Shown here: piece after piece, positions 6,331 through 60,842 of the stretch | How the letters are laid out: every line of letters starts with the position of its first letter | Position numbering within the stretch: position 1 is the first letter of the stretch | Source of the DNA: Candidatus Kerfeldbacteria bacterium | GTDB lineage: Bacteria > Patescibacteriota > Patescibacteriia > UBA9570 > XYC2-FULL-38-9 | DNA length: 64,000 nucleotides | NCBI GenBank assembly: GCA_043813585.1 | Contig: JBDRKW010000020.1 | Location: forward strand, 65,185 to 129,184 | Direction of reading: 5' to 3' | The notes under the pieces: model-generated | Seen by the model: only the letters and a program-made list of their open reading frames with translations | Told to the model about the DNA's origin: nothing | Database searches by the model: none | Position numbers and translations under genes: made by a program

Positions 6331-8463
6331 ATGAAAACAGGCTCATACATCATCCTTGCGGTGATCGGAGTCATCGCGGTTGCCGGAGGTATTTACCTAT
6401 TCCTGCAGTGGGCTCAACTGGAAGAACAGCTGCAGCAGCAAATCGGCACGACCACGTTCGAATCAAATTTTAATTTCAAACGGTTTGCCGACGAAAATGA
6501 CTTCAGCAATTATCTGACGCTTGTTGAGGAAACGGTCGGGGACACCTCCGGCTACGGTGCGGGATTCGGCAGCACGCGGACTATGGCTCTTGAAGACGGT
6601 GCCATGGAAGTTAATGCTATTGATGAATCTGCAAAGGGCGCTCCGCAAGTGGACCGCGTTTCGGAGACCAACGTGCAGGTGCAGGACATTGACGAACCGG
6701 ATATTGTCAAAACAAACGGCGAAGAGATTTTCCTCTCACTAGAACAGTGGTACTACCCGTGGTATGGCGTGGATGACGTACGGTTTGAGGAGATTCCCGT
6801 AACTTCAACGTCCAGTGTTGATGAGGATTCTTCAAGTGAAGAACCGGGTGCGGCTGATGATTCGGGCGATTCAAGCGAAGGCAGCGCCGGAGCGGCAACA
6901 GGCGATGAGGATGCTCCGGAAGATGCAAAAATCGCAGCACCTGATTTCTATGAGCCGCAAAATAATGTATCGGTCGTGAAGGCGTTACCGCCGGAAGCAA
7001 TGGAAAAACTTTCCACCATCGACACGACCGGCGACCTCCTACTGTCCGGCGATGTGCTTGTCGCCATCGGGTATGAAGGAATCAAGGGGTTTGACATATC
7101 CGACCCGGCGCAGCCCACAGAAAAATGGTCATATGATTTTGAAAACGATTCGTACTATGACACCGCACGGCTGTATGGCAATACGATTTATCTTGTGCTG
7201 CAAACCCCATTGGACTACGGATCGCCATGTCCGGTAAGGCCGTTGTCAGACGGCGAGATGTACACCGTGGCATGCGCTGATATCTATTATCCCGGCGCTC
7301 CGGTACGGACAGAGCTCACCAGCACTATCCTGAGCATTGACGCTCCAAGCGGGTTCATCAACGACAGCGTCACCTTTACCGGTTCGTATGACCAGTCCGT
7401 GATCTACATGTCCAAAGACAACCTGTACGCCACCTACGCATATACTGCGCCGACCTATGTGATGATGTACGGCTTCTTTACGACGGATGGCGCAGACCTG
7501 TTCCCGGCAGCGACGATTGACCGGTTGAAGGCCGTGAACGGATATGATATTTCAGTGGAAGCGAAGATGGTGGAACTCGAGCAAACGTTGACAAAGTACA
7601 TGGAAACGCTTTCGGACGATGACGCGCTGACATTCGAGACCAACATCGAAGACCGTCTTGATAAATTCTACGATAACCACCTGCGCGAATTCGAACGCAC
7701 GGACATCACGAAGATCGGCACGGACAGTTTCGAAGTCGCCGCAACCGGCAGCGTACCCGGCCATCCGTTGAACCAGTTCTCGCTGGATGAATACAACAAC
7801 CACTTGCGCATTGCGACCACGATCGGCGAATCGTTCTGGTTCGGGATTACAGCAAATACTTTAAACGACCTATATGTGCTCGATAGCAACCTGAAGCAGA
7901 CCGGTTCGGTCATGGATCTGGGCGAAGGCGAGCGCATCTACTCAACACGCTTTATCGGCGATGTCGGCTACATGGTCACATTCCGAGAGACCGACCCGTT
8001 CTACGTGTTTGACCTGTCAAACCCGAACGCGCCGAAAAAGACGGGTGAATTGAAGATTCCGGGGTATTCAGCATATCTGCACCCAATTTCCGAAGACCGC
8101 GTTCTCGGCATCGGCAGGGAAGACCAGCAGGTCAAAGTTTCGCTGTTTGACGTAAGTGATCCCTCAAACCCAACAGAAAAAGACAAGTACCAGCTGAACG
8201 AATACTGGTCCGATATCCTGGACACGCATCATGCATTCCTGCTTGATGAGAAGTACAGCGTCTTCTTCCTGCCTGGAAGCAACGGAGGATACGTGCTCTC
8301 CTATGAAAACGACAAGCTGGAGCTGAAAAAAGCGGTGAGCGATATTCAGGCAAAACGCGCGCTGTATATCAACGATTACCTGTATATCCTGGGCAGCGAC
8401 AAGATTGTCGTGCTTTCGGAAAAAGACTGGGAGCGGGCCGGCCAGCTGAAACTGTTCGAATAA
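6331..8463 (+). CDS. membrane-anchored extracytoplasmic protein, putative beta-propeller domain protein
   Basis: N-terminal TM/signal anchor. The motif 'VDRVSETNVQVQDIDEPDIVKTNGEEIF' resembles the Beta_propel (PF09826-like) family as I recall it. An acidic low-complexity linker follows. No enzymatic motifs recognised. Confidence 0.35.
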   Translation: MKTGSYIILAVIGVIAVAGGIYLFLQWAQLEEQLQQQIGTTTFESNFNFKRFADENDFSNYLTLVEETVGDTSGYGAGFGSTRTMALEDGAMEVNAIDESAKGAPQVDRVSETNVQVQDIDEPDIVKTNGEEIFLSLEQWYYPWYGVDDVRFEEIPVTSTSSVDEDSSSEEPGAADDSGDSSEGSAGAATGDEDAPEDAKIAAPDFYEPQNNVSVVKALPPEAMEKLSTIDTTGDLLLSGDVLVAIGYEGIKGFDISDPAQPTEKWSYDFENDSYYDTARLYGNTIYLVLQTPLDYGSPCPVRPLSDGEMYTVACADIYYPGAPVRTELTSTILSIDAPSGFINDSVTFTGSYDQSVIYMSKDNLYATYAYTAPTYVMMYGFFTTDGADLFPAATIDRLKAVNGYDISVEAKMVELEQTLTKYMETLSDDDALTFETNIEDRLDKFYDNHLREFERTDITKIGTDSFEVAATGSVPGHPLNQFSLDEYNNHLRIATTIGESFWFGITANTLNDLYVLDSNLKQTGSVMDLGEGERIYSTRFIGDVGYMVTFRETDPFYVFDLSNPNAPKKTGELKIPGYSAYLHPISEDRVLGIGREDQQVKVSLFDVSDPSNPTEKDKYQLNEYWSDILDTHHAFLLDEKYSVFFLPGSNGGYVLSYENDKLELKKAVSDIQAKRALYINDYLYILGSDKIVVLSEKDWERAGQLKLFE

Positions 8464-8478
8464 GGTATTCCCCAAAAA

Positions 8479-8505
8479 GGGCCGCAACACAGCGGTCCTT
8501 TTTTC
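8479..8505 (+). terminator. rho-independent terminator (GGGCCGC-aacaca-GCGGTCC-TTTTTT)
   Basis: GC-rich 7-bp stem plus T6, directly after the 6331..8463 stop. Confidence 0.7.
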
Positions 8506-8521
8506 ATATGCAAAAAAACGG

Positions 8522-8527
8522 TATACT
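8522..8527 (+). promoter_or_regulatory. TATACT -10 element upstream of beta-helix gene 1
   Basis: cggTATACTa lies 26 nt before ATG 8554. The whole terminator/-10/5'UTR unit is duplicated upstream of the paralog at 11016. Confidence 0.4.
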
Positions 8528-8553
8528 AAAGACGTTAAAGAGTAAAAAAAAAT

Positions 8554-10923
8554 ATGGAGAGATTACGTTTTATTAAAGCACTGGCGATTGCAGGATCCGC
8601 ATCAGTGTTCATTTTTGCGTGTACGGCTGTTCCTGCAAGCGCGACAAATTATGTTGTTACAAAGACAGCAGACACGAATGACGGTACGTGCAACAGCGAT
8701 TGTTCGCTTCGCGAAGCTATTCGCGCTGCAAATGATGTTTTAGGGGACGATGAAGTTACGATTCCTGCCGGGACATACACGTTCACCCTGGCGGGGCGCG
8801 GGGAAGATGCCGCATCAACCGGCGACTTGGACATTGAAGACAATCTCATCATTCGGGGTGATAAGGCATCGAATACCATCATTGACGCGGACGATCTGGA
8901 CAGGGTCTTTGAGGTTGAAGCAGGATGGATAGTGGAACTCCATGATCTCACCATCCAAAACGGTACGGCAGCGGTCGGGTCCGGTGCGAATGGGGGAGGC
9001 ATAGCGAACGAAGGCGTGCTATCCATTTATGATTGCATCATAAAGAATAATATCGCGTCTTCATTTTCAGGCGTGACCGGGGGATCGGGAAATGGCGGCG
9101 GCATCTATAATAACGGAGCAATGCCACTTATTGAGCGAACAACATTTGATGGCAATAAGGCAGTTATGAGCAGAAGTTCCAACTTCGGAACTGGCATGGG
9201 CGGTGCAATCTATAACAATTTGGAAATAACAACCATTAATGATTCTGAGTTTACCGGGAATTACGGCTCATATAATACCGGCACCGGGAACTTTGCCGGG
9301 TATGCCGGAGCCATTCATAATGACAGTACATTAGGGACATTAAAGCACTCAACCTTATCCAATAATGGAGCGGTCTACACCGAAGGCCTGGGAACAGGAT
9401 ATGGCGGCGGCATTTTTAACAATGGCACATGGACAACCCTACGCAACACAACATTCAAGGCAAACGTTGCCCTTGAGCACGAGGGCCCGGGATTTGCGGC
9501 GGGTTACGGAGGTGCAGCATTTAACAATAATTCGCTTCAAACCATTCAACGGGTAAAAATTCTCAACAATACGGCTAAGAAAGGCACGGGCCAGGGATAC
9601 GGTTATGCGGGAGGAGTGTTCATTAATGCACCGATAGCCACCATGGAGCATATGACGATAGACGGTAATGTGGCGTTAAGCTACAACAGTGTCTCGGGTT
9701 CCTCTCTCGGTTATGGGGGAGGACTGTACGTAAATAGTGTAGTGACTACATTCCGAAACACCACCATAAGCAATAACACCGCCAAAAAAGGATTCAATGA
9801 TGGAAATGGTTATGGCGGAGGCATGTATGTGAACAGTAAAATATCACATTTTCAGAACTCAACCGTGAGCGGCAATACGACATGTGAATATACTGGCAGC
9901 GGAACCGTGGGTTGCTGGGGCGGTGGCATATATGAAAATGCAGACGGATCGAGTTACGATCATGTAACAATAGCCGACAATACAACGGCAAACGTAACCG
10001 GTAGCGGGATGGCAAACGCAAGCGCCGGCGGGATTTTCCAGGGCGGCACTGCATTAGCGCTCAAAAATTCAATCCTTTCAGGCAATTACGAAGACGGTGA
10101 CCAAACAACCGCTTCTGACTGCGAAATTTGGGGAACACTGACATCAGGTGGATATAACATCTTCAGCGAGACAACAGACTGTACAGTAACTACATCCACT
10201 GGCGACCAAACAAACACAGATCCGGAGATCGGTATCCTCAATGATAATGGAGGGTTCAATGAAACACATAAACTGCTCGACGGATCACCTGCGCTAGACA
10301 AGATTCCAACGGCGGTCTGTACTTTGAATGAGGACCAGCGCGAAGTAGAGCGGCCGCAGGGCGAAAACAATAAATGCGATGTGGGCGCGTATGAGCTTGA
10401 ACAGTGGGGTGCGGTAGCCGAACTCGTTCCACAACAGAACACGGAACTCAAAGTAAAGTACACCTACGGCTCTGACCAGACCTTCGATGTCTTTACAACT
10501 GGTACCGCAAAACCAAAGTGCAAACTGGCAAAAGACGGCGAGCGCATCGTCTGTGTGAAATACAACGGTAAAAACGTGAGTGTAACCGATTCTTGGTCTG
10601 GCGAAGTACTTTCAAAAACAAAGATCAGGAAGAATAAGCAGCCGTATGTGAAGTTAAAAGTCTTCGACTTCTATGACGATGATCCAAAAAATGAGGTTGT
10701 GGTTGCATCGATCCGCAATAACAAATTGCGAACAACCATCATTACCCTCACGGACGAAAAAAGCAAACTAAAGAACGAAAATACGAAGAAGGAGGATCCT
10801 TTCACAAGGGACGGCTTTGATATTGATGGCCACAAGAAGCGAGTTCAGATTATGTACGGAAGCGACGTATTGCACGAATACAAGGTGAACAGCGACCGGG
10901 ATCTCGAAGACTGGAGTTCCTAG
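8554..10923 (+). CDS. secreted right-handed beta-helix repeat protein (CSLREA-motif N-domain, Pmp-like GGxI/FxxN rungs, conserved lysine-rich C-terminal module), paralog 1
   Basis: Signal peptide 'ALAIAGSASVFIFACTAVPASA'. N-domain 'TKTADTNDGTCNSDCSLREAIRAAND'. About ten ~22-aa rungs 'GYGGGIYNNG / GGAIYNN / GGAAFNNN'. A ~165-aa C-terminal domain is about 80% identical to that of the paralog. Confidence 0.6.
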   Translation: MERLRFIKALAIAGSASVFIFACTAVPASATNYVVTKTADTNDGTCNSDCSLREAIRAANDVLGDDEVTIPAGTYTFTLAGRGEDAASTGDLDIEDNLIIRGDKASNTIIDADDLDRVFEVEAGWIVELHDLTIQNGTAAVGSGANGGGIANEGVLSIYDCIIKNNIASSFSGVTGGSGNGGGIYNNGAMPLIERTTFDGNKAVMSRSSNFGTGMGGAIYNNLEITTINDSEFTGNYGSYNTGTGNFAGYAGAIHNDSTLGTLKHSTLSNNGAVYTEGLGTGYGGGIFNNGTWTTLRNTTFKANVALEHEGPGFAAGYGGAAFNNNSLQTIQRVKILNNTAKKGTGQGYGYAGGVFINAPIATMEHMTIDGNVALSYNSVSGSSLGYGGGLYVNSVVTTFRNTTISNNTAKKGFNDGNGYGGGMYVNSKISHFQNSTVSGNTTCEYTGSGTVGCWGGGIYENADGSSYDHVTIADNTTANVTGSGMANASAGGIFQGGTALALKNSILSGNYEDGDQTTASDCEIWGTLTSGGYNIFSETTDCTVTTSTGDQTNTDPEIGILNDNGGFNETHKLLDGSPALDKIPTAVCTLNEDQREVERPQGENNKCDVGAYELEQWGAVAELVPQQNTELKVKYTYGSDQTFDVFTTGTAKPKCKLAKDGERIVCVKYNGKNVSVTDSWSGEVLSKTKIRKNKQPYVKLKVFDFYDDDPKNEVVVASIRNNKLRTTIITLTDEKSKLKNENTKKEDPFTRDGFDIDGHKKRVQIMYGSDVLHEYKVNSDRDLEDWSS

Positions 10924-10937
10924 AAGTCTAATATAAA

Positions 10938-10963
10938 GGGCCGCTACTGCGCGGTCCTTTTTT
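10938..10963 (+). terminator. rho-independent terminator (GGGCCGC-tactgc-GCGGTCC-TTTTTT), near-copy of 8479-8505
   Basis: Same stem as the upstream terminator with only the loop differing. It is followed by cgcTATACTa. Confidence 0.7.
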
Positions 10964-10980
10964 AGTACAGCAAAAAGCGC

Positions 10981-10986
10981 TATACT
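10981..10986 (+). promoter_or_regulatory. TATACT -10 element upstream of beta-helix gene 2
   Basis: gcaaaaagcgcTATACTa closely matches gcaaaaaaacggTATACTa at 8511-8528. Confidence 0.4.
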
Positions 10987-11015
10987 ACTCTTGTTAATGA
11001 TTATTCAATAGAACT

Positions 11016-13613
11016 ATGGAGAGATTTCACTTAATCAAAGCGTTGGCAATTACAGGAACATTGTCAGTGTGCTTTTTTGCACTTTCAGCCGTACCGGCAA
11101 GTGCAGACACGTTTGTTGTTACCAAATCCGCAGACACTAATGATGGTACTTGCGACAACGACTGCTCTCTGCGTGAAGCCATTCGCGCTGCAAATGATCA
11201 ATTAGGAGAAGATTCCATCTCATTGCCGGCCGGTACGTATACATTATCAATCGCCGGGCGCGGTGAGGAGGCCGCATCAACCGGCGACCTGGACATTGAG
11301 GAGAATCTGGTCTTTTGGGGTTCGCATGCGACAACAACCTTCATTGATGCCGATGAACTGGACCGCGTGTTTCAGGTGGAACCGGGAGTGACCTTTGAAC
11401 TGCATAGTGTAACCATCCGCGACGGCGTGGCAAACGTCAACGCGAACGGCTACGGCGGCGGCCTCTTTAACAGCGGCACGCTAAAGGTCTACGATTGCAT
11501 ATTTGAAAGCAATACTGCGACATACCTGTCGTCAGGCGCATCAGGCACCGGCTACGGCGGCGGCATTTACAGCAATAACGGAACCATCGATATAATCGAA
11601 GGCACCACGTTTAAAGACAATATTGCGGTCCATAACACAACAACGAATATCGGCACCGGCTACGGCGGCGGCGTCTATAATAACAACGGTACGCTCACTG
11701 AATTAGCGTCCAGTTCGTTCGAGAATAACAGGGCGGAGTATAACACGGGAACAGGAACACATACCGGTTTCGGGGGCGGATTATGGAACGGCGGCACGGT
11801 CGGGCTAGTTAAGTACACGCAATTTACCGAAAATGCCGCAAACGAAAGCACGCAGGCAGGTAACGGGTGGGGAGGCGGTCTCTATAACGCCGGGACAATG
11901 AACGTGGTGCGCGATTCGACGTTTTCTGAAAACACCGGCCTGATAAATAATTCACTCGCAACAGCTAGCGGACAGGGCGGCGGCGTGTACAACAGCGGCA
12001 CTCTCAAAGTGTTGCAGCGCGTAACGCTGGAGGGTAACCACGGAAAAACCGGGTCCGGACCGGGCGGCGGGAGCGGAGGCGCCATCAGAAACATCGGCGA
12101 TATGAATAACCTTGAAGACCTGGTGGTTCAGGAAAACGTGGCTCTTGATTATGACGGTGCCGCATCATCGGCAGCATACGCCGGCGGGCTGTCCAACAAC
12201 GGAACAATATTAAAAATTCAGCGTTCAACCTTCAGTGGCAATATCGGCAGGATCGGCTCTGGAGCCGGCGATGTGTACGGCGGCGGTATCTTCGACCAGG
12301 GAGCTATTAACGCGCTCGAAAATTCAACGATTAGCGGGAACACCGCTCTCTATGACGAAAGTAGCTCTGGTACCAACAGGGGCGAGGGCGGCGGCTACTG
12401 CAACTACGGTTCGGGCTCGACATTAACGAACGTTACCATCGCCGACAACGCTGCTCTGGTGAAGGACGGTGCAAATACAAGCGCCGGATATGGTGGCGGG
12501 TTCTATATTGCCGGCACGATGACGCTTTCGAACTCCATTGTTGCGGACAACACGGCAGGCGGCGCCGGCGATTCCCCGGATTGTGACAATAACAACACGA
12601 TGAATACAAACGGTTACAATATCGTCAGCGATACGACGAATTGTAATTGGAGTTTGGCAACAGGCGACAGAACGGATACAGATCCCGATTTGAATGAGCT
12701 CGCTGACAACGGCGGTTTTGGGGAAACACATTCTTTAAAAACCGGTTCGCTTGCCATAGACCAGATACCTATTGCAAACTGTTCGCTTGCCACTGATCAG
12801 CGTGTGCTTGACCGTCCCGAAGGCACCAAATGCGATATGGGCGCAGTCGAAATGGACCAGACCGCGCCGGTTCTTACTGTAGTCGGCGACTCACCGATGG
12901 ATATCTTGATAAATGATGAATATATCGAACGCTGGGCGTCAGCAACGGATAATTTTGATAACAATGTTCAATCCACGCTAACGTACGACGAACCCGTCAA
13001 CACAGGCAAGATAGGCACCTATTATGTGACCTATACCGCAACTGACAGGGATGGGAATGTCGGAACCGTTCAGCGCACGGTGAATGTCATAAGCCGCGGA
13101 GATGTCACGGAGTTGGTTCCAATGCAAAACACCGAATTGAAGGTCAAATATTCCGGAGGAACGGAACAGACCTTCGATGTGTTTGCAAAGGGCAAGGCAA
13201 AACCCAAATGCAAGCTGTCAAAAGATGAAGAACGCATTGTGTGCGTGAAGTATTCCGGACGCAACGTAAGCGTGCTTGATGCGCAGAGCGGAGAGGTCTA
13301 TTCCAAGAGCAAAATTCGGAAGTACAAGCAGTCGTATGTAAAGTTCAAGGTGATGAATTTCTACGATGACGATCCGAAGAATGAAATTATTGTAGCGACC
13401 ATTAGGGGAAGCAAGCTACGAACGACAATCCTGACGCTCACCGACGCAAACAGCAACCTGAAGAACAAAAATACCAAGAAAGAAGATCCATTTACGAGTG
13501 ACGGCTTCACTATCAAGAAATACAAGAAACGGGTACAGATTAAATACCGCAGTAACGTGCTGCACCAATACAAAGTAAACAGCGACCGCGACCTTGAGGA
13601 TTGGGGTTCGTAG
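11016..13613 (+). CDS. secreted right-handed beta-helix repeat protein, paralog 2, with an additional Ig-like (DUF5011-type) insert
   Basis: N-terminal about 65% identical to paralog 1 (CSLREA motif conserved). Eleven GYGGG(I/L/V)YN rungs. The insert 'TAPVLTVVGDSPMDILINDEYIERWASATDNFDNNVQS...YYVTYTATDRDGNVGTVQRTVNV' matches the DUF5011 Ig-like domain. C-terminal module shared with paralog 1. Confidence 0.6.
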   Translation: MERFHLIKALAITGTLSVCFFALSAVPASADTFVVTKSADTNDGTCDNDCSLREAIRAANDQLGEDSISLPAGTYTLSIAGRGEEAASTGDLDIEENLVFWGSHATTTFIDADELDRVFQVEPGVTFELHSVTIRDGVANVNANGYGGGLFNSGTLKVYDCIFESNTATYLSSGASGTGYGGGIYSNNGTIDIIEGTTFKDNIAVHNTTTNIGTGYGGGVYNNNGTLTELASSSFENNRAEYNTGTGTHTGFGGGLWNGGTVGLVKYTQFTENAANESTQAGNGWGGGLYNAGTMNVVRDSTFSENTGLINNSLATASGQGGGVYNSGTLKVLQRVTLEGNHGKTGSGPGGGSGGAIRNIGDMNNLEDLVVQENVALDYDGAASSAAYAGGLSNNGTILKIQRSTFSGNIGRIGSGAGDVYGGGIFDQGAINALENSTISGNTALYDESSSGTNRGEGGGYCNYGSGSTLTNVTIADNAALVKDGANTSAGYGGGFYIAGTMTLSNSIVADNTAGGAGDSPDCDNNNTMNTNGYNIVSDTTNCNWSLATGDRTDTDPDLNELADNGGFGETHSLKTGSLAIDQIPIANCSLATDQRVLDRPEGTKCDMGAVEMDQTAPVLTVVGDSPMDILINDEYIERWASATDNFDNNVQSTLTYDEPVNTGKIGTYYVTYTATDRDGNVGTVQRTVNVISRGDVTELVPMQNTELKVKYSGGTEQTFDVFAKGKAKPKCKLSKDEERIVCVKYSGRNVSVLDAQSGEVYSKSKIRKYKQSYVKFKVMNFYDDDPKNEIIVATIRGSKLRTTILTLTDANSNLKNKNTKKEDPFTSDGFTIKKYKKRVQIKYRSNVLHQYKVNSDRDLEDWGS

Positions 13614-13687: not shown

Positions 13688-13858
13688 ATGGCGATTGACC
13701 AGCACAGCAAACAACAAGTCCAACAGATGCAGTCCATATACGAGCGGGCATTGCAACAGCTTCAGGCGATCCGCGAGAGCAGGAAACAGTGGAGCGTATG
13801 GTTTGCCGACCATGTAAACAAGAGGAAAATCGAAAAAATAAAGAAAGAGCTGCAGTAA
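13688..13858 (+). CDS. small hypothetical protein (56 aa, Q-rich coiled-coil)
   Basis: ATG..TAA ORF 'MAIDQHSKQQVQQMQSIYERALQQLQAIRESRKQWSVWFADHVNKRKIEKIKKELQ', below the 60-aa cutoff of the ORF track. Its stop lies 1 nt before ATG 13860. Confidence 0.35.
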   Translation: MAIDQHSKQQVQQMQSIYERALQQLQAIRESRKQWSVWFADHVNKRKIEKIKKELQ

Positions 13859-13859: not shown

Positions 13860-15983
13860 ATGCCAGGACTCGAAGGAGCCCCGTCCAGTGCTCCGCAGGA
13901 AAAACAATCGCAAGAGAAAGCGCCTGCAGTAGAACGCGCTGCCGGTCTTGACGTTGAAAGCCTGGACACACCGGAAAAGCGCAGGGAATTCGGCGAACAG
14001 CTGCAACAGGCGCTCCATGCGCAGAGCGAAGCTGTCCGGAACGACATTGCCGAAGGGAGCAGGCGCCTGGACAGGGATTCAGCAGACCTGTCACGTGAAG
14101 AGGTCGCTGATATCTATCCGCAGGCGCAAGCCGCCTTTCAACAACTGGAGACACAGGCTGTTCAGATAGATGCACAGGCAACCGCGCAAATTGATAGCGT
14201 GATTGCCGAGGAGCAAGGTGGAACCGTTCCCGAAGGAGCTTCATTGCGCATAACACGTTCGGAAGCGGAGCTGCAGGCGCTTCGGGACGTTGAACTGGTC
14301 GGTCCGGAAAAATACGGTAAAAGCCTGGTAAAGGAACACCACCGGGACAACATGACGGTGGGCGAGCACGAACAGGCTCAGGAGAAGGCGATGCAGGCGA
14401 TGCAGGAGAAAATTGATGCAGGCGTGATTGATCCGGGGTCAATTTCGAGCGACATGTTGCGCGAACTCGGAGTTGAGCCGGGCACCGAAGGCGCGCCGGA
14501 TTCATTCGACTCTATCATAGGCAGTATTCGAACAGAGCTTACCAAATTTCGCTCCGAAGGATACATCCCGAATTTGGAGGAAGGCGTTGCGATCGAGAAG
14601 GAAATCCGCGAATATATTGACATCTATAGGGAATCGTTTCCGGACGCACCGCCGCAGAAAGTATTCGAAGTGGCCCGCGATAACGCGAGAAAGCTCGCCT
14701 ACCAGACCAGCAGGGATAAAGAAGTGTTCTCAGGGTCTGACCACGGAACCAAACATATCCTGGACGGAAACATGAAGTTCGCCAACCAGATGCTCGACAG
14801 CCTGCAAAAGCAGGGAGTTGACGTGTCTGCGAAAGACAAGCTCTTCATCCACCAGATCATCATTGACCATGACATTGGGTATACGGTTGGAGCCGCGCAG
14901 GCAAAGAAAGGCTTTGAAGCGTCGAAAGACCATCCGCTGTTCAGCACGAAGTTCGTGGAGCAAAACGAAGAGTATTACAAGGATAAGTTCGGCGAGGACG
15001 GGTACAAGATGATTCGTGACGGCATCCTCTACCACAGCTACCCCAAAACAGAACTCAATACGCCGCGTTCAGGTCCTGACGCGGTCAACGTCGATTTGGT
15101 CCGTTCGGTCACTTCCATTGTTGATGGCCTGGGAGTGACGGCGGAGACGAAGACGCCGGCGTTCTTCCAGAAACCGGAAGCGATTTCCACACTCATGAAG
15201 CTTCGTCTTGCCATGGAGGCAGGTGCGACAAAAGACAATCCGTCATTGCTGGATACTTATAAAGCCGATTTGCGGGAAATAGCAGACAAAGAACCGAATG
15301 AAAAACGGCGGACCCAGTTCGGCAAAGCAATTGATGATTTTTTCAATGAATATACTGCTGAAGTGACTCTCGGCCACTATACCGGCGTTGTGCAGGAAGT
15401 GGGCGTCACAATGCAGGGAGACAAGTTCGTCCCCCATGTCAAAGCAAAAATGTCGCGGATACACGCTCTTCTTGGTGACATGTTCGGCGGCAAGCTTGAG
15501 GGCCAGGCGTTTATGAAAGCGATGCAGGAGTTCGGCGTGGAAAGTAATGAGATGAATCGGTTCGGCCTTGAGCTGGAAATTGCGAGGAAAAACGCGATCA
15601 TACGGGAAAAGCCGCTGCAAATGAGGTCAGAGACCGCAGTATTCGAAGTTGATTCCCGATTTATCGAGGAAACTGATAACCAGTACGCCGATATTGAAGC
15701 CGCGATAAGCGAAGTGTACGGCACTTCAATTCGCTCCGAAATCAACAGCATTCTGGACAGCTTTAAAAAAAATCCTGAACTGGCGAGGGAAAACGTTGAC
15801 GAAATACGCGACCGGTTCATCTTTTCTACCACGGAAAAAGCAACAGCGGACGAATTAAAGCAGATACAAACCATGATTGACGGACTTGCAAACCCCGACC
15901 CGGCCGTCGCGCAGGGCGCAGGGGATCAGCTGCGGCATTTCCTGACGGCGGAAGAAAAAAAGCTTTTAAAAATACAAACATGA
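13860..15983 (+). CDS. large hypothetical protein (707 aa) with disordered Q/E/A-rich N-terminus and a possible HD-type phosphohydrolase motif
   Basis: Uninterrupted 707-codon ORF. A central 'SDHGTKHIL ...(37 aa)... IIIDHDIGY ... KDHPLFS ... ILYHSYP' pattern fits the H..HD..H..H spacing of HD domains. No other family recognised. The competing minus-strand ORFs are R/P-rich GC artefacts. Confidence 0.55.
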   Translation: MPGLEGAPSSAPQEKQSQEKAPAVERAAGLDVESLDTPEKRREFGEQLQQALHAQSEAVRNDIAEGSRRLDRDSADLSREEVADIYPQAQAAFQQLETQAVQIDAQATAQIDSVIAEEQGGTVPEGASLRITRSEAELQALRDVELVGPEKYGKSLVKEHHRDNMTVGEHEQAQEKAMQAMQEKIDAGVIDPGSISSDMLRELGVEPGTEGAPDSFDSIIGSIRTELTKFRSEGYIPNLEEGVAIEKEIREYIDIYRESFPDAPPQKVFEVARDNARKLAYQTSRDKEVFSGSDHGTKHILDGNMKFANQMLDSLQKQGVDVSAKDKLFIHQIIIDHDIGYTVGAAQAKKGFEASKDHPLFSTKFVEQNEEYYKDKFGEDGYKMIRDGILYHSYPKTELNTPRSGPDAVNVDLVRSVTSIVDGLGVTAETKTPAFFQKPEAISTLMKLRLAMEAGATKDNPSLLDTYKADLREIADKEPNEKRRTQFGKAIDDFFNEYTAEVTLGHYTGVVQEVGVTMQGDKFVPHVKAKMSRIHALLGDMFGGKLEGQAFMKAMQEFGVESNEMNRFGLELEIARKNAIIREKPLQMRSETAVFEVDSRFIEETDNQYADIEAAISEVYGTSIRSEINSILDSFKKNPELARENVDEIRDRFIFSTTEKATADELKQIQTMIDGLANPDPAVAQGAGDQLRHFLTAEEKKLLKIQT

Positions 15984-16471
15984 CCACGCCACCTTCAAAT
16001 CAGTACGAACGCCAGTTGCGCAATTCAAAGGATACGGCCGAGGAAGAGGAGCGCCGCTCCAGGATGTACGCGCGCATGTTAGATTACATTGAACAACAGG
16101 TACCGGGTTTTACAGTAGGACCGATGGAAGCCGTCACCCTCGCGTATATCTGCAATAAAAAAATTGATGTGCTTCCCCATGACGCGACTGCCGAGACGGT
16201 AACACAGCAGGTATTCGGAATAGAGCAGGGGGACACCGCGCTGGATGCGATGTGGAAAATCCAGCAGGTGGTGCACGGCTGCACAATGGAGGGAATCGAC
16301 AGGCTCGTGCAGGAAGCGCATGGAAATGATGAGGAACGAGCGAAAATGGAAACCCTGCGCTCTATGGTGGCTGCGTCGCATCAAGATAAAGAGGAGAAAT
16401 ACAAAAAAGGCAAGATGTTCAGTATTGGAAAGATCCCTGCGTATTGGAAACCCAGCTGGCTCAAGCTGTAA
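15980..16471 (+). CDS. hypothetical protein (163 aa), translationally coupled to the 707-aa protein
   Basis: ATGA overlap with the upstream stop. No recognisable motif. Confidence 0.5.
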   Translation: MTTPPSNQYERQLRNSKDTAEEEERRSRMYARMLDYIEQQVPGFTVGPMEAVTLAYICNKKIDVLPHDATAETVTQQVFGIEQGDTALDAMWKIQQVVHGCTMEGIDRLVQEAHGNDEERAKMETLRSMVAASHQDKEEKYKKGKMFSIGKIPAYWKPSWLKL

Positions 16472-29472: not shown

Positions 29473-29531
29473 TTGCTTAGTATAGCAAAATATCTTGATT
29501 TTTTCACGATTGTTTGGCACTATTCGATTCA

Positions 29532-31025
29532 ATGGACAACAACGATCTCACGGAACATATCAAGAATAGTACGTGGTACCGCCAGGCGGTGAGCTCCAAT
29601 CTCTATTACGCATACGCGCCTTTTGACGCATATATCAAGCTCATGGGGCCGATTGCCTGTTTTGCCTATTTTGCGAACAATTTTCATGAAGGATACTTCG
29701 ACATCGACCGGTCATTTGAGATGGCCCGGGCAACACTCAAACAAGTTCGAAAGAATAGGGCGACTATCGATGAGATCCACGCGAAGTGGGAAGCTCTAAG
29801 AAGCGAACACGAGAAAAAAGTCGGACGTGTTAATGAAGGCGTCCTGCAGACATTAGATACGGATGCGTTCATAGAATTCCAGAGAGACTTTTTACAATCC
29901 TGGTGCGCACTTTGGATGATCTCTCTTTATGTAGAACCGTTTGATCCATCAGGTGAAGCATTATTGGAAGAGGAGATACAAAAAGCCGGTGTTCGACTTT
30001 CAAAGAATGAGATCGATACTCTGGTAACTCCGAACCGGCCGTTGTTTCATGCAGTGTTCGAGGCGATGCTAGCCAGCATTGCATTGAACAATTATGAACG
30101 GAAAGATCAGTTACTGAAGATGACTGACGAAGTTTCCTATCGGGATAACAGAATTATTGGATGTGCCGACCTGCAGAAGAAGTATTTCTGGAAAAAGAAT
30201 GACTGGGGGAATGCATGCGCCATGACAGAATATGATTTTTTCATAGAACTTGTTCCGTTGTTTACAAAATCAAAACAGGAACTGGGGGAGCTGATAGAAA
30301 GAGTTGAGACACACTCTAAAGACATTGCGATAAGGAAAAAAGAGATCATCGACAAGCACTCGCTGTCAGAGGAACTGCAAAACATCTTTTACTTGTTTGC
30401 TGAGATGACGCTCTTTCGCGACCAAAGGAAGATCAATATGCAAAAAACCGCAGCTGCGCTTGATGCGATGTTAGAATACATGGCTGACAGAACGGGACTG
30501 GAAAAAGGGCTGCTACGCAATGTTTATGTGACCGAGCTTTCAAGCCTGGACTTTTCCGACGATTATGTGGATCTGTTAAAAGAAAGGGAACAAGGGTCAA
30601 TGCAATATGCTGACAGCGACGGTGGGTATATGAACATCAGCGGAAAACAGGCACAAGATATTCATGATCTTCTTGAGCAAACATATAGGCAGCAGCATGC
30701 AGAGATTGTCGGCACGACAGGTTGCGGCGGGAAAGCTGCAGGAACAGTAAAGGTCATTAACACGCCCGAAGAATTTGGGAAAATGGAACAAGGAGATGTT
30801 TTGGTGGCACCGATGACTCGCCCTGAATACGTTCCGCTCATGAAAAAAGCGGCAGCGATCGTTACTGACGAGGGCGGCATTGCCTGCCATGCGGCAATCG
30901 TCTCGCGTGAGCTGGGCATACCGTGCATTATCGGTTCCCAAATCGCCACAAAGGCACTACATGACGGGGATATTGTGGAGGTTGATGCGGATAGTGGTCA
31001 AGTACGTATGATTGAAGAAAAATAA
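29532..31025 (+). CDS. PEP-utilising-enzyme mobile (phosphohistidine swivel) domain protein with ~390-aa helical N-domain, paralog A
   Basis: C-terminal 'GKAAGTVKVI...GDVLVAPMTRPEYVPLMKKAAAIVTDEGGIACHAAIVSRELGIPCIIG' matches the PEP-utilizers domain with its catalytic His. No PPDK_N ATP-grasp domain. The track ORF begins at TTG 29514. Confidence 0.7.
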   Translation: MDNNDLTEHIKNSTWYRQAVSSNLYYAYAPFDAYIKLMGPIACFAYFANNFHEGYFDIDRSFEMARATLKQVRKNRATIDEIHAKWEALRSEHEKKVGRVNEGVLQTLDTDAFIEFQRDFLQSWCALWMISLYVEPFDPSGEALLEEEIQKAGVRLSKNEIDTLVTPNRPLFHAVFEAMLASIALNNYERKDQLLKMTDEVSYRDNRIIGCADLQKKYFWKKNDWGNACAMTEYDFFIELVPLFTKSKQELGELIERVETHSKDIAIRKKEIIDKHSLSEELQNIFYLFAEMTLFRDQRKINMQKTAAALDAMLEYMADRTGLEKGLLRNVYVTELSSLDFSDDYVDLLKEREQGSMQYADSDGGYMNISGKQAQDIHDLLEQTYRQQHAEIVGTTGCGGKAAGTVKVINTPEEFGKMEQGDVLVAPMTRPEYVPLMKKAAAIVTDEGGIACHAAIVSRELGIPCIIGSQIATKALHDGDIVEVDADSGQVRMIEEK

Positions 31026-32531
31026 ATGACATTCGAACAAGCAAAAAAGAAAGCAGGGGGACATACCTGGTGGAGCGAAGAATGCCCGGGCAAGATGCAG
31101 TATTGCTATTGGATGCATGGCGCGGTGGAGCAGCAGCTCTATTTTACGCCCGGCTTATTGAGCGTCTGTTTTTGCACGGTCCAAAACGGCTATCTTAAAG
31201 AAAAGTCTTCAGAACAGGAAAAACTACAACAGTATTTCTGGTTAAAGGAGCAGTATCAGGACGACCATGGGTACATCGACCAGGAGCACGACCGCTGGAT
31301 GCAGGTTCGCAACGATAAGGTTGCATCGTGTCAGGAGATAGTTTCCCACACAGGCAAGTGGAGCCGTAAACAGCTGTTGGAACAATACAGCCGCTTGCTG
31401 TCGCTCGCAGTCGATTCGGTCAGATGGGGGTTCTGGATCGAGAACGTGGACGTGTATACAAACAATGAACTTCCAAAAAAAATGGCAGAAGTGCTTCCGG
31501 ACATGGACAGCACGGAACGAAGTACTCTGACAGTGACGATGTGCACACCACTGATCGTGAGTTTTATGGAAGAATATCGCATCGACAAGTATCATGTGAT
31601 ACTCAACTACAGAAACGAACTGAATGAACCAACTGAAAGGGCCAAAAAAGCGGTTCAATCCTTCCACATGCAATACCGGTATATTTCCGTCAACTATGGA
31701 GGGTCGCCACCGCTCACAGAAGAAGATATTTGGAGGGAAATTCTTGAGGATGCAGCAACGCATACGGATGAAGAGCTGAAACAGGAGATCGACGATATTG
31801 AAGACAAGATTGATCGTGTCGCAGCCCAGCAATCAGCACTGGAAGAACAGCACCAGTTTCCGATGGATCTGTTGGACGACTTCACCATCATTCGTTCCAT
31901 AGGCGCATGGATGGATGAGCGCAAGGAATCGATGGTGAAGACATCGTTCGCAATCTGGACCATACTTGGAGCAATCGCCGATACAACCGGGATACCAAAA
32001 AGCGAACTGGAGTGGTATACGGTTGAGGAGATAAAAGCGTTGTTGCGTGATGATACGTGCATTCCAGCGGAACAAATACAGGAACGCAACCATAATTCCG
32101 TTATCGCCAGCGAGTTCGACGGCAAAGAGGGGAGCGATATAACGTTCTTTACGGGAAGCGAGGCGGATGAGCTGAGTGCGCTTCTTAACGCGGGCAATAC
32201 AGATGTGTTGGAAGGCATCGTCGCCAGTGCTCCTGATGCGGCCGGCGCAGTCTTTGCCGGCACGGTACAAATCGTAACAGATATCGAAAAAGAGGATTTT
32301 GAAGCGGGAAACATACTAGTGACCTCCATGACACGTCCGGATTTCATGCCGCTTATGAAGAAAGCGGCAGCAATAATCACCAATGAAGGCGGCATGACCT
32401 GCCACGCGGCAATTGTGGCGCGCGAGTTGGGCATTCCCTGCATTATTGGAACCAAATATGCAACAGAAACGCTGAGAAACGGCGATACGGCAGCGATGAA
32501 CATGGAGACTGGGGAGATTACAATCCAATAG
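31026..32531 (+). CDS. PEP-utilising swivel-domain protein, paralog B
   Basis: C-terminal 'GNILVTSMTRPDFMPLMKKAAAIITNEGGMTCHAAIVARELGIPCIIG'. Divergent N-domain. Starts 1 nt after paralog A. Confidence 0.7.
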   Translation: MTFEQAKKKAGGHTWWSEECPGKMQYCYWMHGAVEQQLYFTPGLLSVCFCTVQNGYLKEKSSEQEKLQQYFWLKEQYQDDHGYIDQEHDRWMQVRNDKVASCQEIVSHTGKWSRKQLLEQYSRLLSLAVDSVRWGFWIENVDVYTNNELPKKMAEVLPDMDSTERSTLTVTMCTPLIVSFMEEYRIDKYHVILNYRNELNEPTERAKKAVQSFHMQYRYISVNYGGSPPLTEEDIWREILEDAATHTDEELKQEIDDIEDKIDRVAAQQSALEEQHQFPMDLLDDFTIIRSIGAWMDERKESMVKTSFAIWTILGAIADTTGIPKSELEWYTVEEIKALLRDDTCIPAEQIQERNHNSVIASEFDGKEGSDITFFTGSEADELSALLNAGNTDVLEGIVASAPDAAGAVFAGTVQIVTDIEKEDFEAGNILVTSMTRPDFMPLMKKAAAIITNEGGMTCHAAIVARELGIPCIIGTKYATETLRNGDTAAMNMETGEITIQ

Positions 32532-32532
32532 T

Positions 32533-33978
32533 ATGAATAACGTTATCTCACATGGCCGTGAAAAACTGCGCTGGGGCCCGCTCGACGGAACCTACACGTC
32601 ATTGATCGGCACGGCTGAAGGCGTGGTGATGAAATTGTATGACCACTATCAGTTTGAATGGCCCGCAGGCGTGATGATGGCACGCGGGAACCGGTGGCAA
32701 TGGGTGCAGGACTGGGATCGTCTTATCGAACAAAGCTTCAAGTGTTTTCAAACCCTGATTTTACCCGAAGAAAAGCGCAAAGAGATACGGCAGGCATACG
32801 ATACGCAGGTGAAGCACAATCGGAGTTATGCCGATGCGGTATACAACGGTGAGCTCCCCAAGTTAGATAATGACGCGTTTGTTTCATTCTTCCGGGACTG
32901 GTTTGAGAATTACATTTCATTCTGGGGGCACTCATCACCTTGCGAGCTTTCAACCTGGGGAACAGTGGACCACCTGCAAAAAGAACTTGAACAGCGCAAC
33001 CTCAAGCCGGATGAACTCGCACGGGCATTAGAAACGCTTACCGCGCCAAGCGGATTGTCATTCTTCCAGGAGGCAGAGGCTGATTTATTAAGGACGCTCA
33101 TCAATAAAGAGCCGCTGCAAAGCCACATTGACAGATACTACTGGCTCGGTAACAGTTATGCAGGAGCAAAACGCCGCATGCTAGAAGACATTGAAGAACA
33201 GGCAGCAGAGTTGAGCAGCAAAAAAGACAGCCTGGAAGAGCAATATGCAGTGCTGACGGCATACGCAAAACAGCTGCAACAAAAACGAACAAGGATCCAG
33301 GAAGAGTTTACGCTGCCTGATGAGTTAATGGATAAAAGTCGCGCGCTTGGGATCGCAGTGACATGGCAGGATGAGCGCAAAGGAGAGATGTTCCGGCAGA
33401 TGGACGTGCTCTTTAATTGTGTAGACGAATATGCGCGCAGATTTGGCGCTGAGCGGGACGACATCAACTGGGTTGATGTGCACGAGCTTCTCGAAAATGC
33501 AGAAGACACAAACAAGATTGCAGAACTAGCCGAGGATCGCCGCGGGCATTGCGTGGTCTTCTTTTCCAAGGAGTCACACGAGACAACCGGTGGAATAAAA
33601 GCGGAAGAGTACCTTAATGAATATTGGGAAGACGAACCCGTGAATGACGAACTGAAAGGAACGGTTGCGAGTTTCGGTGATGGCGAAAGGACGGTAACCG
33701 GACAAGTCACCATAATTCATTCGGCGTTTGAAGACAAGGATTTCAAAGAGGGAAGCATACTGGCGTCAGCCATGACCACGCCGGAATTCATGCCGCTGAT
33801 CAAAAAAGCAAAAGCAATTATCACTGATGAAGGCGGCCTGACTGCGCATGCGGCAGTGGTTTCCCGTGAAATGGGCATACCGTGCATTGTTGGGACGAAA
33901 TTCGCAACAAAACTGCTAAAAGACGGCGATAGTGTTACAATGAATCTTCAGACGGGGGAAATTATCAAAAACAATTAA
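32533..33978 (+). CDS. PEP-utilising swivel-domain protein, paralog C
   Basis: C-terminal 'GSILASAMTTPEFMPLIKKAKAIITDEGGLTAHAAVVSREMGIPCIVG'. Divergent N-domain. Starts 2 nt after paralog B. Confidence 0.7.
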   Translation: MNNVISHGREKLRWGPLDGTYTSLIGTAEGVVMKLYDHYQFEWPAGVMMARGNRWQWVQDWDRLIEQSFKCFQTLILPEEKRKEIRQAYDTQVKHNRSYADAVYNGELPKLDNDAFVSFFRDWFENYISFWGHSSPCELSTWGTVDHLQKELEQRNLKPDELARALETLTAPSGLSFFQEAEADLLRTLINKEPLQSHIDRYYWLGNSYAGAKRRMLEDIEEQAAELSSKKDSLEEQYAVLTAYAKQLQQKRTRIQEEFTLPDELMDKSRALGIAVTWQDERKGEMFRQMDVLFNCVDEYARRFGAERDDINWVDVHELLENAEDTNKIAELAEDRRGHCVVFFSKESHETTGGIKAEEYLNEYWEDEPVNDELKGTVASFGDGERTVTGQVTIIHSAFEDKDFKEGSILASAMTTPEFMPLIKKAKAIITDEGGLTAHAAVVSREMGIPCIVGTKFATKLLKDGDSVTMNLQTGEIIKNN

Positions 33979-34939: not shown

Positions 34940-36691
34940 ATGACCTCGAAAGAGTTTAGGCATTTCAAACCGGAAAAAGTCCTCATCCCGGAAACAGAAA
35001 AAGGCGGCCTGCCGTCCGAGGGTACCCAGATTATTCATGACCAGGACGGCCGGATCGCGTTTTGCGGCTCCCCGCACGATGTTGCGCAGTGGGTGAACGC
35101 CCGGCGCGACGAGGGTGCCACATTTCGAACAGAAGAAGGGGGAGTGCTGCTTCCCGGGCTGGCAGACACGCATTACCACCCTGCAATTTACGGCACGCTC
35201 GAGCTCCTAAGGCCGGCAGACGCGTCCGCAGTAAAATCGGCCGGACAGCTGCGCAACCTCGCGCAGGAGGCGCTGCGCGAACGCAAAGGCGAAACACACT
35301 CGGACGAGCCGCTGGTGATATTGAATTACGATTCTTCACAGGTTGGAAGCTTCAGCGAGCTGAACATGGACGAGGTGGAGGCGACACAGCCGATATTCGT
35401 GCTGGACCGGTCGTTCCACAGCGGCGCGGGCAATTCTGCAGCAATGCGGGTGCTTGACCGGTATTTGGAAAAAAATTACAGCCAGCGCAAACAGAAGTCA
35501 GGCGCGTACGATTTCCCTGGCTATATGAAAAAGCAGGAAATTGCGGAAGCGTTTGTATTCCTGGCAATGGAGTTAGCCGAATCATACCAATCCGTGGAAA
35601 AGGTTGAAGGCGCGATTGAGACGAGCGTGGAAAATTACCTCGCGAAAGGCGTGACGTCGATCCACGAGATGGCGGTCATGTCCTGGCAACAGCTTATGGC
35701 GTACCTGTTGCTTCACAAGGAATGGAAAGGGAAGCACCCGAAGATGGAGTTCCCGGTGAGGCAGATCTACCTAACCGACGCCGTAGTCGAGCGGTTCGTG
35801 CGCGAAGAGGATGCGCTGGTGAAATCCGGTTTGCTGACCGACGATATCAAGGGAATATTAGGAGTGAAACTGCTGGCTGACGGATCAATCGGCAGCAGGA
35901 CCGCGCTTATGGATGAACCCTATTTGTCCGCTGACCAAAAGAAACAGCACGGCATCATCTACAACCGCATGCGCGAGGCGGAAAAAGCGCTCAAACTGGC
36001 AGCACGGTCCGGTTTGGATAAAGTTGCGGTGCATGCGATCGGCGATAAAGGCATTGTGCGCGCCATCGAATTCGGCCGCAAATGGATGGAGATCGCGGAA
36101 AAAGGGAAGATTGACCCGAAATTCCGCATGGAGCATTTTGAACTTCCGCAGCCCGAATCTATTCGCGAGGCAGGGGAGATGGGCGCATGGGTGTCCATGC
36201 AGCCGAATTTTGGACTGGAAGACATTGTGTACCATGACCGCATCGGCAACCGCACGCGGCTGCTCTGTCCGCACGCTGACCTGACGAACGAAGGCGTGCC
36301 GATGATGTTCGGGAGCGACGGCATGCCGGACAGCATGTTGTACGTCATCTGGTCAGCCATGCACCACCACGACCCGAAACACCGGCTGGACGCCATATCA
36401 GCCGTGACAGCCGCATCTGCGGCTGCAGGCGCGTATGAGGGTTCGCTGCGCGGGACGCTGCAGCCCGGGTCGCAGACCGATATTGTGGTGGCGTCGCCGG
36501 AGCTGCTGCAGGTGCTGGCAGACGGACGGCTTGCACAGGACTATTTTGAACAGGCCGACCTGCCGCCTGACCAGCGGACGATCCCGATCCGCGACCAGGT
36601 TGGCGAGCTGGAACGCCGGATTTTGCGGGTATTCAGGAACGGGCAGCTTGTCCATGCAGCAGATTCGGAGAAGGACGGGAAAAGCAGTTGA
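34940..36691 (+). CDS. amidohydrolase family protein (Amidohydro_3-like metal-dependent hydrolase)
   Basis: 'LLPGLADTHYHPA' (HxH metal site), 'VLDRSFHSGAGNS', 'VAVHAIGDKGIVRAIEFG', 'GSDGMPDS'. GC-rich (~58-60%). Confidence 0.7.
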   Translation: MTSKEFRHFKPEKVLIPETEKGGLPSEGTQIIHDQDGRIAFCGSPHDVAQWVNARRDEGATFRTEEGGVLLPGLADTHYHPAIYGTLELLRPADASAVKSAGQLRNLAQEALRERKGETHSDEPLVILNYDSSQVGSFSELNMDEVEATQPIFVLDRSFHSGAGNSAAMRVLDRYLEKNYSQRKQKSGAYDFPGYMKKQEIAEAFVFLAMELAESYQSVEKVEGAIETSVENYLAKGVTSIHEMAVMSWQQLMAYLLLHKEWKGKHPKMEFPVRQIYLTDAVVERFVREEDALVKSGLLTDDIKGILGVKLLADGSIGSRTALMDEPYLSADQKKQHGIIYNRMREAEKALKLAARSGLDKVAVHAIGDKGIVRAIEFGRKWMEIAEKGKIDPKFRMEHFELPQPESIREAGEMGAWVSMQPNFGLEDIVYHDRIGNRTRLLCPHADLTNEGVPMMFGSDGMPDSMLYVIWSAMHHHDPKHRLDAISAVTAASAAAGAYEGSLRGTLQPGSQTDIVVASPELLQVLADGRLAQDYFEQADLPPDQRTIPIRDQVGELERRILRVFRNGQLVHAADSEKDGKSS

Positions 36692-36716
36692 CATTTTTCA
36701 TTCAGTGACGTACGGT

Positions 36717-52348: not shown

Positions 52349-52349
52349 T

Positions 52350-53456: not shown

Positions 53457-53458
53457 CT

Positions 53459-60810: not shown

Positions 60811-60842
60811 ACCTTTACAGCAGGTTGAACGGGCATTGTTGT

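Follow-up and report, generated by a model that had tools for sequence, protein, structure and literature searches.

How the ultrasmall bacteria of the candidate phyla radiation (CPR)/Patescibacteria retain proteins at their surface and attach to partners is largely unknown, and their surface proteins are mostly annotated by generic repeat domains. Two tandem genes in a 64,000-nt stretch of a Candidatus Kerfeldbacteria genome (contig JBDRKW010000020.1, positions 65,185 to 129,184; hereafter the window) raise this question in a concrete form: what is the C-terminal part that their products share, and what could it do there? The two plus-strand open reading frames (ORFs), 8554–10923 (gene 1, 789 aa) and 11016–13613 (gene 2, 865 aa), lie exactly where a prediction made earlier from the sequence alone (the original prediction) had placed them, and they proved to encode paralogs, as it had proposed, with an overall identity of 40% (BLASTP E-value of 2e-173). 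Each protein consists of a passenger body followed by a C-terminal module of 168 aa. The body and the tandem duplication appear ordinary, and the new part of the locus is the module, which represents a real, well-folded domain family that is rare and has no entry in Pfam or NCBIfam.

The C-terminal module, its relatives and its predicted fold

The two modules align over all 168 aa without a gap, with an identity of 74% for the protein and 69% for the DNA, and they are the best-conserved part of the paralogs (74% vs. 38% in the centre). The original prediction had described a shared lysine-rich C-terminal domain of approximately 165 aa and 80% identity; the shared domain was indeed present, but the identity had been set too high. 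That it could not assign this domain to any family agrees with the database searches. The Pfam scan gave no match for module 1 and only a chance-level one to ILEI (E 0.044) for module 2, and at E ≤ 10 neither NCBIfam nor a sequence search of the PDB gave anything for either module. Models of known surface anchors in Pfam and NCBIfam, which included SLH, LysM, CWB2, GW/SH3b, choline-binding repeats, the C-terminal domain (CTD) of the type IX secretion system (T9SS), LPXTG, PEP-CTERM, and similar ones, found no match in the modules; the check that had been suggested earlier, a search for an anchor of the SLH, LysM, or T9SS type, was covered by these scans and returned none. Likewise, the sortase motif, autotransporter barrel, and S-layer homology domain that the original prediction had described as not visible did not appear in the Pfam and NCBIfam scans. 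Autotransporter barrel models matched neither the two proteins nor the modules, in which the modelled C-terminus is made of propeller blades. A C-terminal hydrophobic helix with a basic tail of the sortase, exosortase, or rhombosortase type was absent, the maximum Kyte–Doolittle value for a 19-residue segment being 1.27 in any module. The two proteins end with …DLEDWSS and …DLEDWGS.

When 1.84 billion cluster representatives were scanned exhaustively with HMMER, 48 module proteins were recovered at E ≤ 1e-3, and four further carriers (P0049–P0052) were found beyond these. A word-indexed search of 5.8 billion proteins returned nothing for the module query and P0036 only for a 45-sequence profile; such an index evidently misses this family, which the exhaustive scan recovers. 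The scan of genome contigs with the module alignment A1 gave no relative. The module reached the C-terminus in all 48 representatives (48/48). The domains located in front of it were immunoglobulin-like (Ig-like) in 26 of these carriers, choice_anch_Q in 21, CSLREA in 19, and FG-GAP in 9, in addition to PKD, TSP3, CarboxypepD_reg, Peptidase_S8 (a subtilase plus PKD), Peptidase_M4, GLUG, and SdiA-regulated/phytase-like domains, so that at least eight unrelated passenger types carry the module. A hydrophobic N-terminal segment was present in 39 of the 43 full-length carriers. Kerfeldbacteria were named as the source of P0001, P0002, P0037, and P0052, and “Patescibacteria group” as that of P0031, with P0006 and P0010 labelled just “bacterium”; all carriers with a taxon name belong to Patescibacteria, to which the module appears to be restricted.

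Several carriers occur in one genome or contig, namely two in the window and three on the contig SRR33375183_10683. On the latter, the full carriers P0015 and P0020 are accompanied by a 150-aa protein (locus L004, 930–1382, minus strand) consisting of a signal peptide and a truncated module (HMM positions 38–156, E 1e-13), i.e., a stand-alone secreted three-blade version. No conserved neighbour gene, sortase-like or other, was found around eight loci of the relatives, where the carriers sit among housekeeping genes. In the metagenome-assembled genome (MAG) GCA_030698395.1 (L006 3580–9780 and L007 1921–8175), P0006 and a cadherin-like/Big_9 repeat protein are arranged head-to-head; the latter, of 2,066–2,084 aa, is a far larger surface protein and has no module. 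Literature searches directed at CSLREA, at choice-of-anchor proteins, and at beta-propellers and C-terminal domains of Patescibacteria turned up no paper that describes the module.

A model structure of the module was constructed with AlphaFold2 using a 45-sequence alignment (A2), which gave a pLDDT of 95.9 and a pTM of 0.90, vs. a pLDDT of 39 when the two window modules were used alone. The model contains 15 strands grouped as 3 + 4 + 4 + 4, and the module is accordingly predicted to be an all-beta domain with approximately four propeller-type, four-stranded blades. A lysine-rich disordered tail was also considered, and was rejected because of this confident fold. When the model was submitted to Foldseek, the top 50 PDB matches and the top BFVD matches were nearly all propellers (WD40, PROPPIN, and YncE) with a probability of 1.0 and E-values of 5e-5 to 7e-4, at a sequence identity of 10–17%; the TMq reached 0.64 for WIPI3 in the PDB and 0.68 in BFVD. 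The 7-bladed targets were covered to about half (TMt 0.3–0.38). No propeller repeat model (WD40, PQQ, FG-GAP, Kelch, NHL, or YVTN) of Pfam matched the module at E ≤ 10, and hhalign detected no significant internal repeat among the four blades (probability ≤ 19%).

The modules and the passengers to which they are attached differ sharply in charge, with medians of pI 10.3 and net +22 for the former and pI 4.05 and net −67 for the latter. P0034 and P0037, of which one is from Kerfeldbacteria, are divergent carriers that break this charge rule. Their modules are extended at the C-terminus by a tail with a cysteine (…SECIVYFW), and the two may represent a sub-family that has another partner. In the module alignment, cysteines are nearly all found in co-occurring pairs (columns 35 + 46, 25 + 46, 23 + 62, and 165 + tail) with two lone exceptions, a pattern consistent with disulfide bonds in an extracytoplasmic domain.

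The identity of modules and passengers was further compared within and between genomes. For pairs from the same genome (the window pair, P0015/P0020, and P0006/P0010), the modules are 69–82% identical and the passengers 46–47%, where the common genome of P0006 and P0010 is taken from their close NCBI accessions and identical source label. For pairs from different genomes (P0001 or P0002 with P0051, and P0001 with P0023), the modules are only 32–35% identical and the passengers 46–53%. This contrast indicates that all modules of a cell evolve together, independently of the passenger, as would be expected if they track one shared, lineage-specific partner. Strong purifying selection on the module is indicated by the proportions of synonymous (pS) and non-synonymous (pN) differences between gene 1 and gene 2, obtained by Nei–Gojobori counts on their codon alignment: pN is 0.165 in the module, where pS is saturated (0.885).

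The position of the module within the proteins can be compared with that of other C-terminal signals. In both proteins it is preceded by a choice-of-anchor Q domain (NF041518, E approximately 1e-17), which the original prediction had missed, and in gene 2 an Ig-like domain lies between the two. The choice-of-anchor name denotes a domain that precedes different C-terminal anchoring signals depending on the lineage (NCBIfam naming). The C-termini of 115 passenger homologs surveyed here follow this rule: in other phyla they show LPxTGG with a transmembrane (TM) segment and RRR, PTLSWP with a TM segment and R, YLPLxxR, PWIPLLLLDD, or dockerin-like and RTX sequences. Tails resembling LPxTG, PEP-CTERM, and dockerin signals are found on this body there. 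In the window proteins, the module stands where the choice-of-anchor domain leads one to expect an “anchor”, since homologs elsewhere carry their lineage-specific tails at this place.

Readings of the module's role

The reading that we prefer, to which we assign about an even chance from these sequence-based data, is that the module is a Patescibacteria-specific, non-covalent surface-retention (anchor) domain. Sec export would carry the passenger and the module out of the cell, and the basic module would then attach to an anionic constituent of the envelope of that same cell, be it lipid head groups, an S-layer, a surface polysaccharide, or a polymer of the wall. It would in this manner retain acidic passengers at the surface, from beta-helix and FG-GAP proteins to subtilases, M4 peptidases, and further kinds. 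The original prediction had put the module forward as a candidate anchoring or binding domain, and the anchor idea is strengthened because the module is always C-terminal, follows many passengers that are unrelated to one another, takes the place behind choice-of-anchor Q, is opposite in charge to its passengers, and evolves in concert within genomes. Several points weigh against it. The observations would also be compatible with a domain directed at a host cell's surface. The lack of a conserved neighbour in the eight loci argues against a dedicated sorting enzyme, and gives no positive support for an anchor. The window modules (+4 and +14) are the least basic among the basic ones; moreover, because the modules of P0034 (pI 7.7) and P0037 (pI 4.4) are neutral and acidic, respectively, charge alone is not the whole mechanism. 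The apparent restriction to Patescibacteria is drawn from five taxon-named proteins, most carriers being metagenomic.

Instead of holding its passenger on the producer, the module might be the business end of these proteins, i.e., a lectin-like or lipid-binding propeller that targets adhesins and proteases to the host surface (glycans, teichoic acids, or anionic lipids). The propeller-blade fold and the basic surface of the module would suit such a role, the Foldseek matches include the lipid-binding PROPPINs WIPI3, Hsv2, and Atg18, and the module occurs on proteases as well as on adhesin-like bodies. The similarity within and divergence between genomes could also reflect host specificity, and cultivated Patescibacteria are all episymbionts (PMC12206443). 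We nevertheless consider host binding rather unlikely: the C-terminus after choice-of-anchor Q is the site of self-anchoring in homologs, the passengers (beta-helix, FG-GAP, and Ig-like) already look like binding parts, and the producer would be left to hold these proteins by nothing, as they have no TM segment, LPxTG motif, or lipobox. The number of blades raises another thought. Approximately four blades in 168 aa superpose on about half of the 7-bladed propellers (TMq 0.55–0.68, 160–180 columns), and no 4-bladed hemopexin-type match is present among the 50 Foldseek matches listed, so the module could be an oligomerisation device, whose open four-blade arc pairs with a second copy to generate homo- or hetero-oligomers or an S-layer-like array. 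Such pairing would be favoured by the high module identity within a genome, and the signal-peptide-bearing truncated module of L004 could be read in the same way; however, the monomer model is already very confident (pTM 0.90), and strongly basic modules, being of like charge, would push one another apart if no polyanion lay between them, which makes this proposal distinctly improbable in our estimation. We also regard it as unlikely, if a little less so, that an open four-blade half-propeller docks on a receptor or polymer of the envelope that is dedicated to it, or closes its ring with a second copy, and so constitutes a previously unrecognised surface-display system specific to Patescibacteria. 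If this were true, a single docking interface, co-evolving rapidly, would be common to all cargo of a cell (adhesin-like beta-helices, FG-GAP proteins, and proteases), which would explain why the modules are near-identical within a genome and approximately 32–35% identical between genomes.

A strictly C-terminal domain on diverse cargo, present in several copies per genome, also recalls a secretion or sorting signal that is recognised and removed by a machinery, as the T9SS CTD is by the sortase PorU. The carriers, however, already possess Sec-type N-terminal signals (the hydrophobic segment mentioned above, in 39/43), no neighbouring gene is conserved in the eight loci, and neither the T9SS CTD nor any other sorting-signal model was matched. 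The 168 aa are under purifying selection over their whole length and far exceed known sorting signals in size, and a removable signal is in our view very improbable indeed. It may finally be argued that there is nothing special here, and that the window encodes ordinary CSLREA paralogs with a poorly annotated beta-rich spacer, free of any targeting role, at the C-terminus. NCBI names both proteins by known domains only, and their passenger family is huge (at least 2,990 matches), as this explanation would have it. We give it little credence, since a spacer would not be C-terminal in 48 of 48 representatives with at least eight passenger types, nor would it be better conserved than every other part of the paralogs or evolve in concert within genomes.

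Passenger body, duplication and the surrounding window

The features of the two genes are listed in Table 1. Both proteins carry a predicted Sec-type signal peptide ending in …VPASA. Their N-terminal 160 aa are 64% identical, close to the 65% given by the original prediction, and the CSLREA head that it had named was recovered by the profile search in both (TIGR04214). The following glycine-rich repeats have the motif G-x-G-[YFW]-G-G-[GA]-[ILVM]-[YF]-N … [ST]-[FI]-x-x-N-x-A with a period of 33–36 aa in both proteins, in agreement with the DNA repeat spacings of 99–108 nt (families D2–D5 in gene 2). The number of 10–11 repeats claimed earlier holds with the approximately 11 units found here, but the claimed rung of about 22 aa does not, and proteins of 789 and 865 aa can hardly be called giant. 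Membership of the chlamydial polymorphic membrane protein (Pmp) repeat family was not borne out either: Chlam_PMP (PF02415) remained below the threshold for gene 1 (14.2 bits vs. 20.6, E 0.055) and gave no match for gene 2, and TIGR01376 matched neither protein at E ≤ 0.1. PF13229 (Beta_helix) was also matched by neither at E ≤ 0.1. Among the homologs, P0023, the closest one, which is 42% identical to gene 1 over the repeats, passes PF02415 (26.3 vs. 20.6 bits), and P0031 (36.8 bits) and many CSLREA relatives reach the cut-off of PF13229; many of these relatives match Chlam_PMP as well. In the PDB, phmmer found nothing for the passenger, and the whole-family profile found Ig-like, PKD, and cadherin domains there, together with pectinesterase at a non-significant E of 0.17–0.25. 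The repeats are likely to form a right-handed beta-helix, as judged by homology, and an adhesin-like role may be supposed. With at least 2,990 homologs at E ≤ 1e-5, found in Anaerolineae, Actinobacteria, Chromatiales, Kaiserbacteria, and others, the passenger body is by its sequence an ordinary member of the catalogued CSLREA/choice-of-anchor Q family.

Gene 2 contains the DUF5011-type Ig-like domain (now PF16403, E 8e-15) noticed by the original prediction, and the Pfam scan found no match to it in gene 1. Its description as an insert was not supported, as P0009, P0023, P0051, and P0052, the nearest homologs, all have this domain; an ancestral domain lost from gene 1 is thus more parsimonious, and gene 1 has probably lost its copy. 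The junction between the Ig-like domain and the module has a conserved V-x-V-[VI]-S-R-G sequence, often S-R-G-D (gene 2, P0003, P0006, and P0023). The RGD tripeptide is probably a coincidence, although linkers are seldom as conserved as this junction.

The copied non-coding unit that the original prediction had placed upstream of both genes, a terminator with the element GCAAAAA..CG.TATACTA, was found as the 69-nt direct repeat D6 (8476–8544 vs. 10935–11003, 72% identity). The hairpin motif AAGGGCCGC-N6-GCGGTCCTTTT occurs in the 64 kb at two sites only, upstream of gene 1 and of gene 2, for a chance expectation of 0. The two copies have the same stems and T-tracts with unlike loops, as is expected of a constrained terminator. 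RNA folding gave no comparable hairpin 3′ of gene 2. The TATACT sequences resemble a −10 hexamer and may have a promoter role; a sigma-70 consensus scan called no promoter at them because a good −35 hexamer is lacking.

The duplication had been described as recent. It is instead old, because pS is saturated at 0.78–0.89 in most of the gene pair: the values are 0.83 in the central repeats (pN 0.422), 0.78 in choice-of-anchor Q (pN 0.299), and 0.89 in the module, with 0.60 in the first 130 codons (pN 0.185). In the central region, P0051 from another assembly is closer to gene 1 (49%) and gene 2 (46%) than these are to each other (38%). The 5′ end and the upstream DNA have diverged less than the remainder of the pair, which points either to a tract of gene conversion of older date or to a regulatory region under constraint. 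The tandem duplication itself is ordinary.

The gene upstream of the pair (6331–8463) encodes a 710-aa secreted Beta_propel protein (PF09826, E 6e-109), whose closest relatives in the genome-contig scan were in a Doudnabacteria MAG (46%) and in a MAG labelled “uncultured Gammaproteobacteria” (40%). These two distant loci, the only ones found with that gene, had no synteny beyond it and no paralog. On the 3′ side of gene 2 are a 56-codon ORF (13689–13858), a 707-aa ORF (13860–15983), and an overlapping 163-aa ORF (15980–16471). The latter two had no significant Pfam or NCBIfam match, the 56-codon ORF not being among those scanned; the 707-aa protein has many charged residues and no signal peptide. 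A surface-polysaccharide cluster at 50891–63070 encodes a Wzx-like flippase, a Wzy_C O-antigen-ligase-like protein, DUF4012, and a GT4 glycosyltransferase, and might supply an envelope polymer for the basic module to bind. Three tandem paralogs of 503, 501, and 481 aa (29514–33978) each match only the PEP-utilising-enzyme mobile domain, at the C-terminus, with no family assigned to their N-terminal 400 aa or so. A 313-aa gene with PPDK_N alone lies 6 kb downstream (39915–40856), so that the four genes look like a split, triplicated PEP synthase/PPDK-like system. A local island at 34940–38411 has a guanine-plus-cytosine content of 0.60 at 36–38 kb vs. approximately 0.48 elsewhere; it holds two adjoining Amidohydro_3 paralogs (583 and 515 aa), and may be a horizontally acquired segment. 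The window also encodes FtsEX, ThiI, MnmA, and a short AlaRS, a content that fits a small-genome bacterium, and its Rfam matches were two tRNAs only.

Table 1. Positions and supporting evidence of the features in and around gene 1 and gene 2 (window numbering).
Feature	Coordinates	Strand	Evidence
Hairpin 1, AAAAAGGGCCGC-N6-GCGGTCCTTTTTT	8474–8503	+	intrinsic-terminator-like, ends upstream gene 6331–8463; fold −18.3 kcal/mol, z −5.5
GCAAAAA..CG.TATACTA element, copy 1	8510–8528	+	TATACT 8522–8527, 26 nt upstream of gene 1 ATG; part of D6
Gene 1	8554–10923	+	789 aa; MFH1426603.1, NCBI name “CSLREA domain-containing protein”, Candidatus Kerfeldbacteria MAG; exact-sequence look-up
Signal peptide, gene 1	8554–8643	+	residues 1–30, …AVPASA/TNY; read from translation
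CSLREA N-terminal domain, gene 1	8650–8733	+	residues 33–60; TIGR04214 42.0 bits vs. cut-off 25
Glycine-rich repeats, gene 1	8971–10023	+	~11 units; motif at 147, 181, 216, 284, 319, 388, 421, 456
Choice-of-anchor Q, gene 1	10219–10398	+	residues 556–615; NF041518 63.9 bits vs. cut-off 25, E 1.2e-17
C-terminal module, gene 1	10417–10920	+	residues 622–789, 168 aa; pI 8.9, net charge +4
Hairpin 2	10935–10960	+	copy of hairpin 1, motif at 10936, ends gene 1; fold −16.3 kcal/mol, z −3.8
A-rich/TATACT element, copy 2	10969–10987	+	TATACT 10981–10986, 29 nt upstream of gene 2 ATG
Gene 2	11016–13613	+	865 aa; MFH1426604.1, NCBI name “choice-of-anchor Q domain-containing protein”; exact-sequence look-up
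Signal peptide, gene 2	11016–11105	+	residues 1–30, …AVPASA/DTF; read from translation
CSLREA N-terminal domain, gene 2	11112–11195	+	residues 33–60; TIGR04214 39.2 bits vs. cut-off 25
Glycine-rich repeats, gene 2	11433–12596	+	~11 units; motif at 147, 181, 217, 253, 286, 321, 354, 422, 493
Choice-of-anchor Q, gene 2	12681–12854	+	residues 556–613; NF041518 61.7 bits vs. cut-off 25
Bacterial surface Ig-like (PF16403, formerly DUF5011), gene 2	12876–13088	+	residues 621–691; 55.1 bits vs. cut-off 27, E 8e-15
Junction motif, gene 2	~13089–13106	+	residues 692–697
C-terminal module, gene 2	13107–13610	+	residues 698–865, 168 aa; pI 9.7, net charge +14

Comparison with known systems

An HMM built from the 45-sequence alignment A2 could list the surface-displayed proteome of Kerfeldbacteria-like genomes, and the module is a candidate both for assays of binding and as a tag for surface display. 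It also adds an entry to the anchors that follow choice-of-anchor domains. Both window proteins pass the two models of the CSLREA/choice-of-anchor Q proteins (TIGR04214 and NF041518), a group to which the passenger belongs without any peculiarity. Homologs elsewhere carry short sorting tails or other domains at the C-terminus, whereas the window proteins and their Patescibacteria relatives carry the 168-aa propeller-like module. The repeats share GG[AG][ILV] and FxxN-type motifs with chlamydial Pmp proteins (PF02415 and TIGR01376); unlike these, the window proteins are sub-threshold or without a match, have no autotransporter barrel, and are built of 33–36-aa units.

By analogy, the module would work in a manner similar to that of the non-covalent wall-binding modules of monoderms (the SLH triplet, CWB2, GW, LysM, and choline-binding repeats). 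It resembles them in being C-terminal, in its size (approximately 160–180 aa), in being common to unrelated secreted proteins of one organism, and in having neither a membrane segment nor a covalent sorting motif. GW modules are basic and bind lipoteichoic acid, to which the basic charge of the module may be likened. It differs from this group in having no sequence match and in its predicted propeller-type four-stranded blades; SLH is helical, GW is SH3-like, and LysM has a beta-alpha-alpha-beta fold. The T9SS CTD of Bacteroidota follows the same logic, in which one C-terminal beta domain is attached to dozens of unrelated cargo proteins, often after an Ig-like or choice-of-anchor domain. That CTD is a beta-sandwich of approximately 80–100 aa, which an outer-membrane translocon recognises and then cleaves, and Patescibacteria are not known to possess a T9SS. 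The module is twice as long as the CTD, differs in its predicted fold, and has no match to its models. The best structural matches are the WD40, PROPPIN, and YncE propellers, which have seven blades vs. approximately four in the module (15 strands in 168 aa). Among these, PROPPINs bind anionic lipids through basic pockets, and DNA binding has been reported for YncE, a propeller that bacteria secrete.

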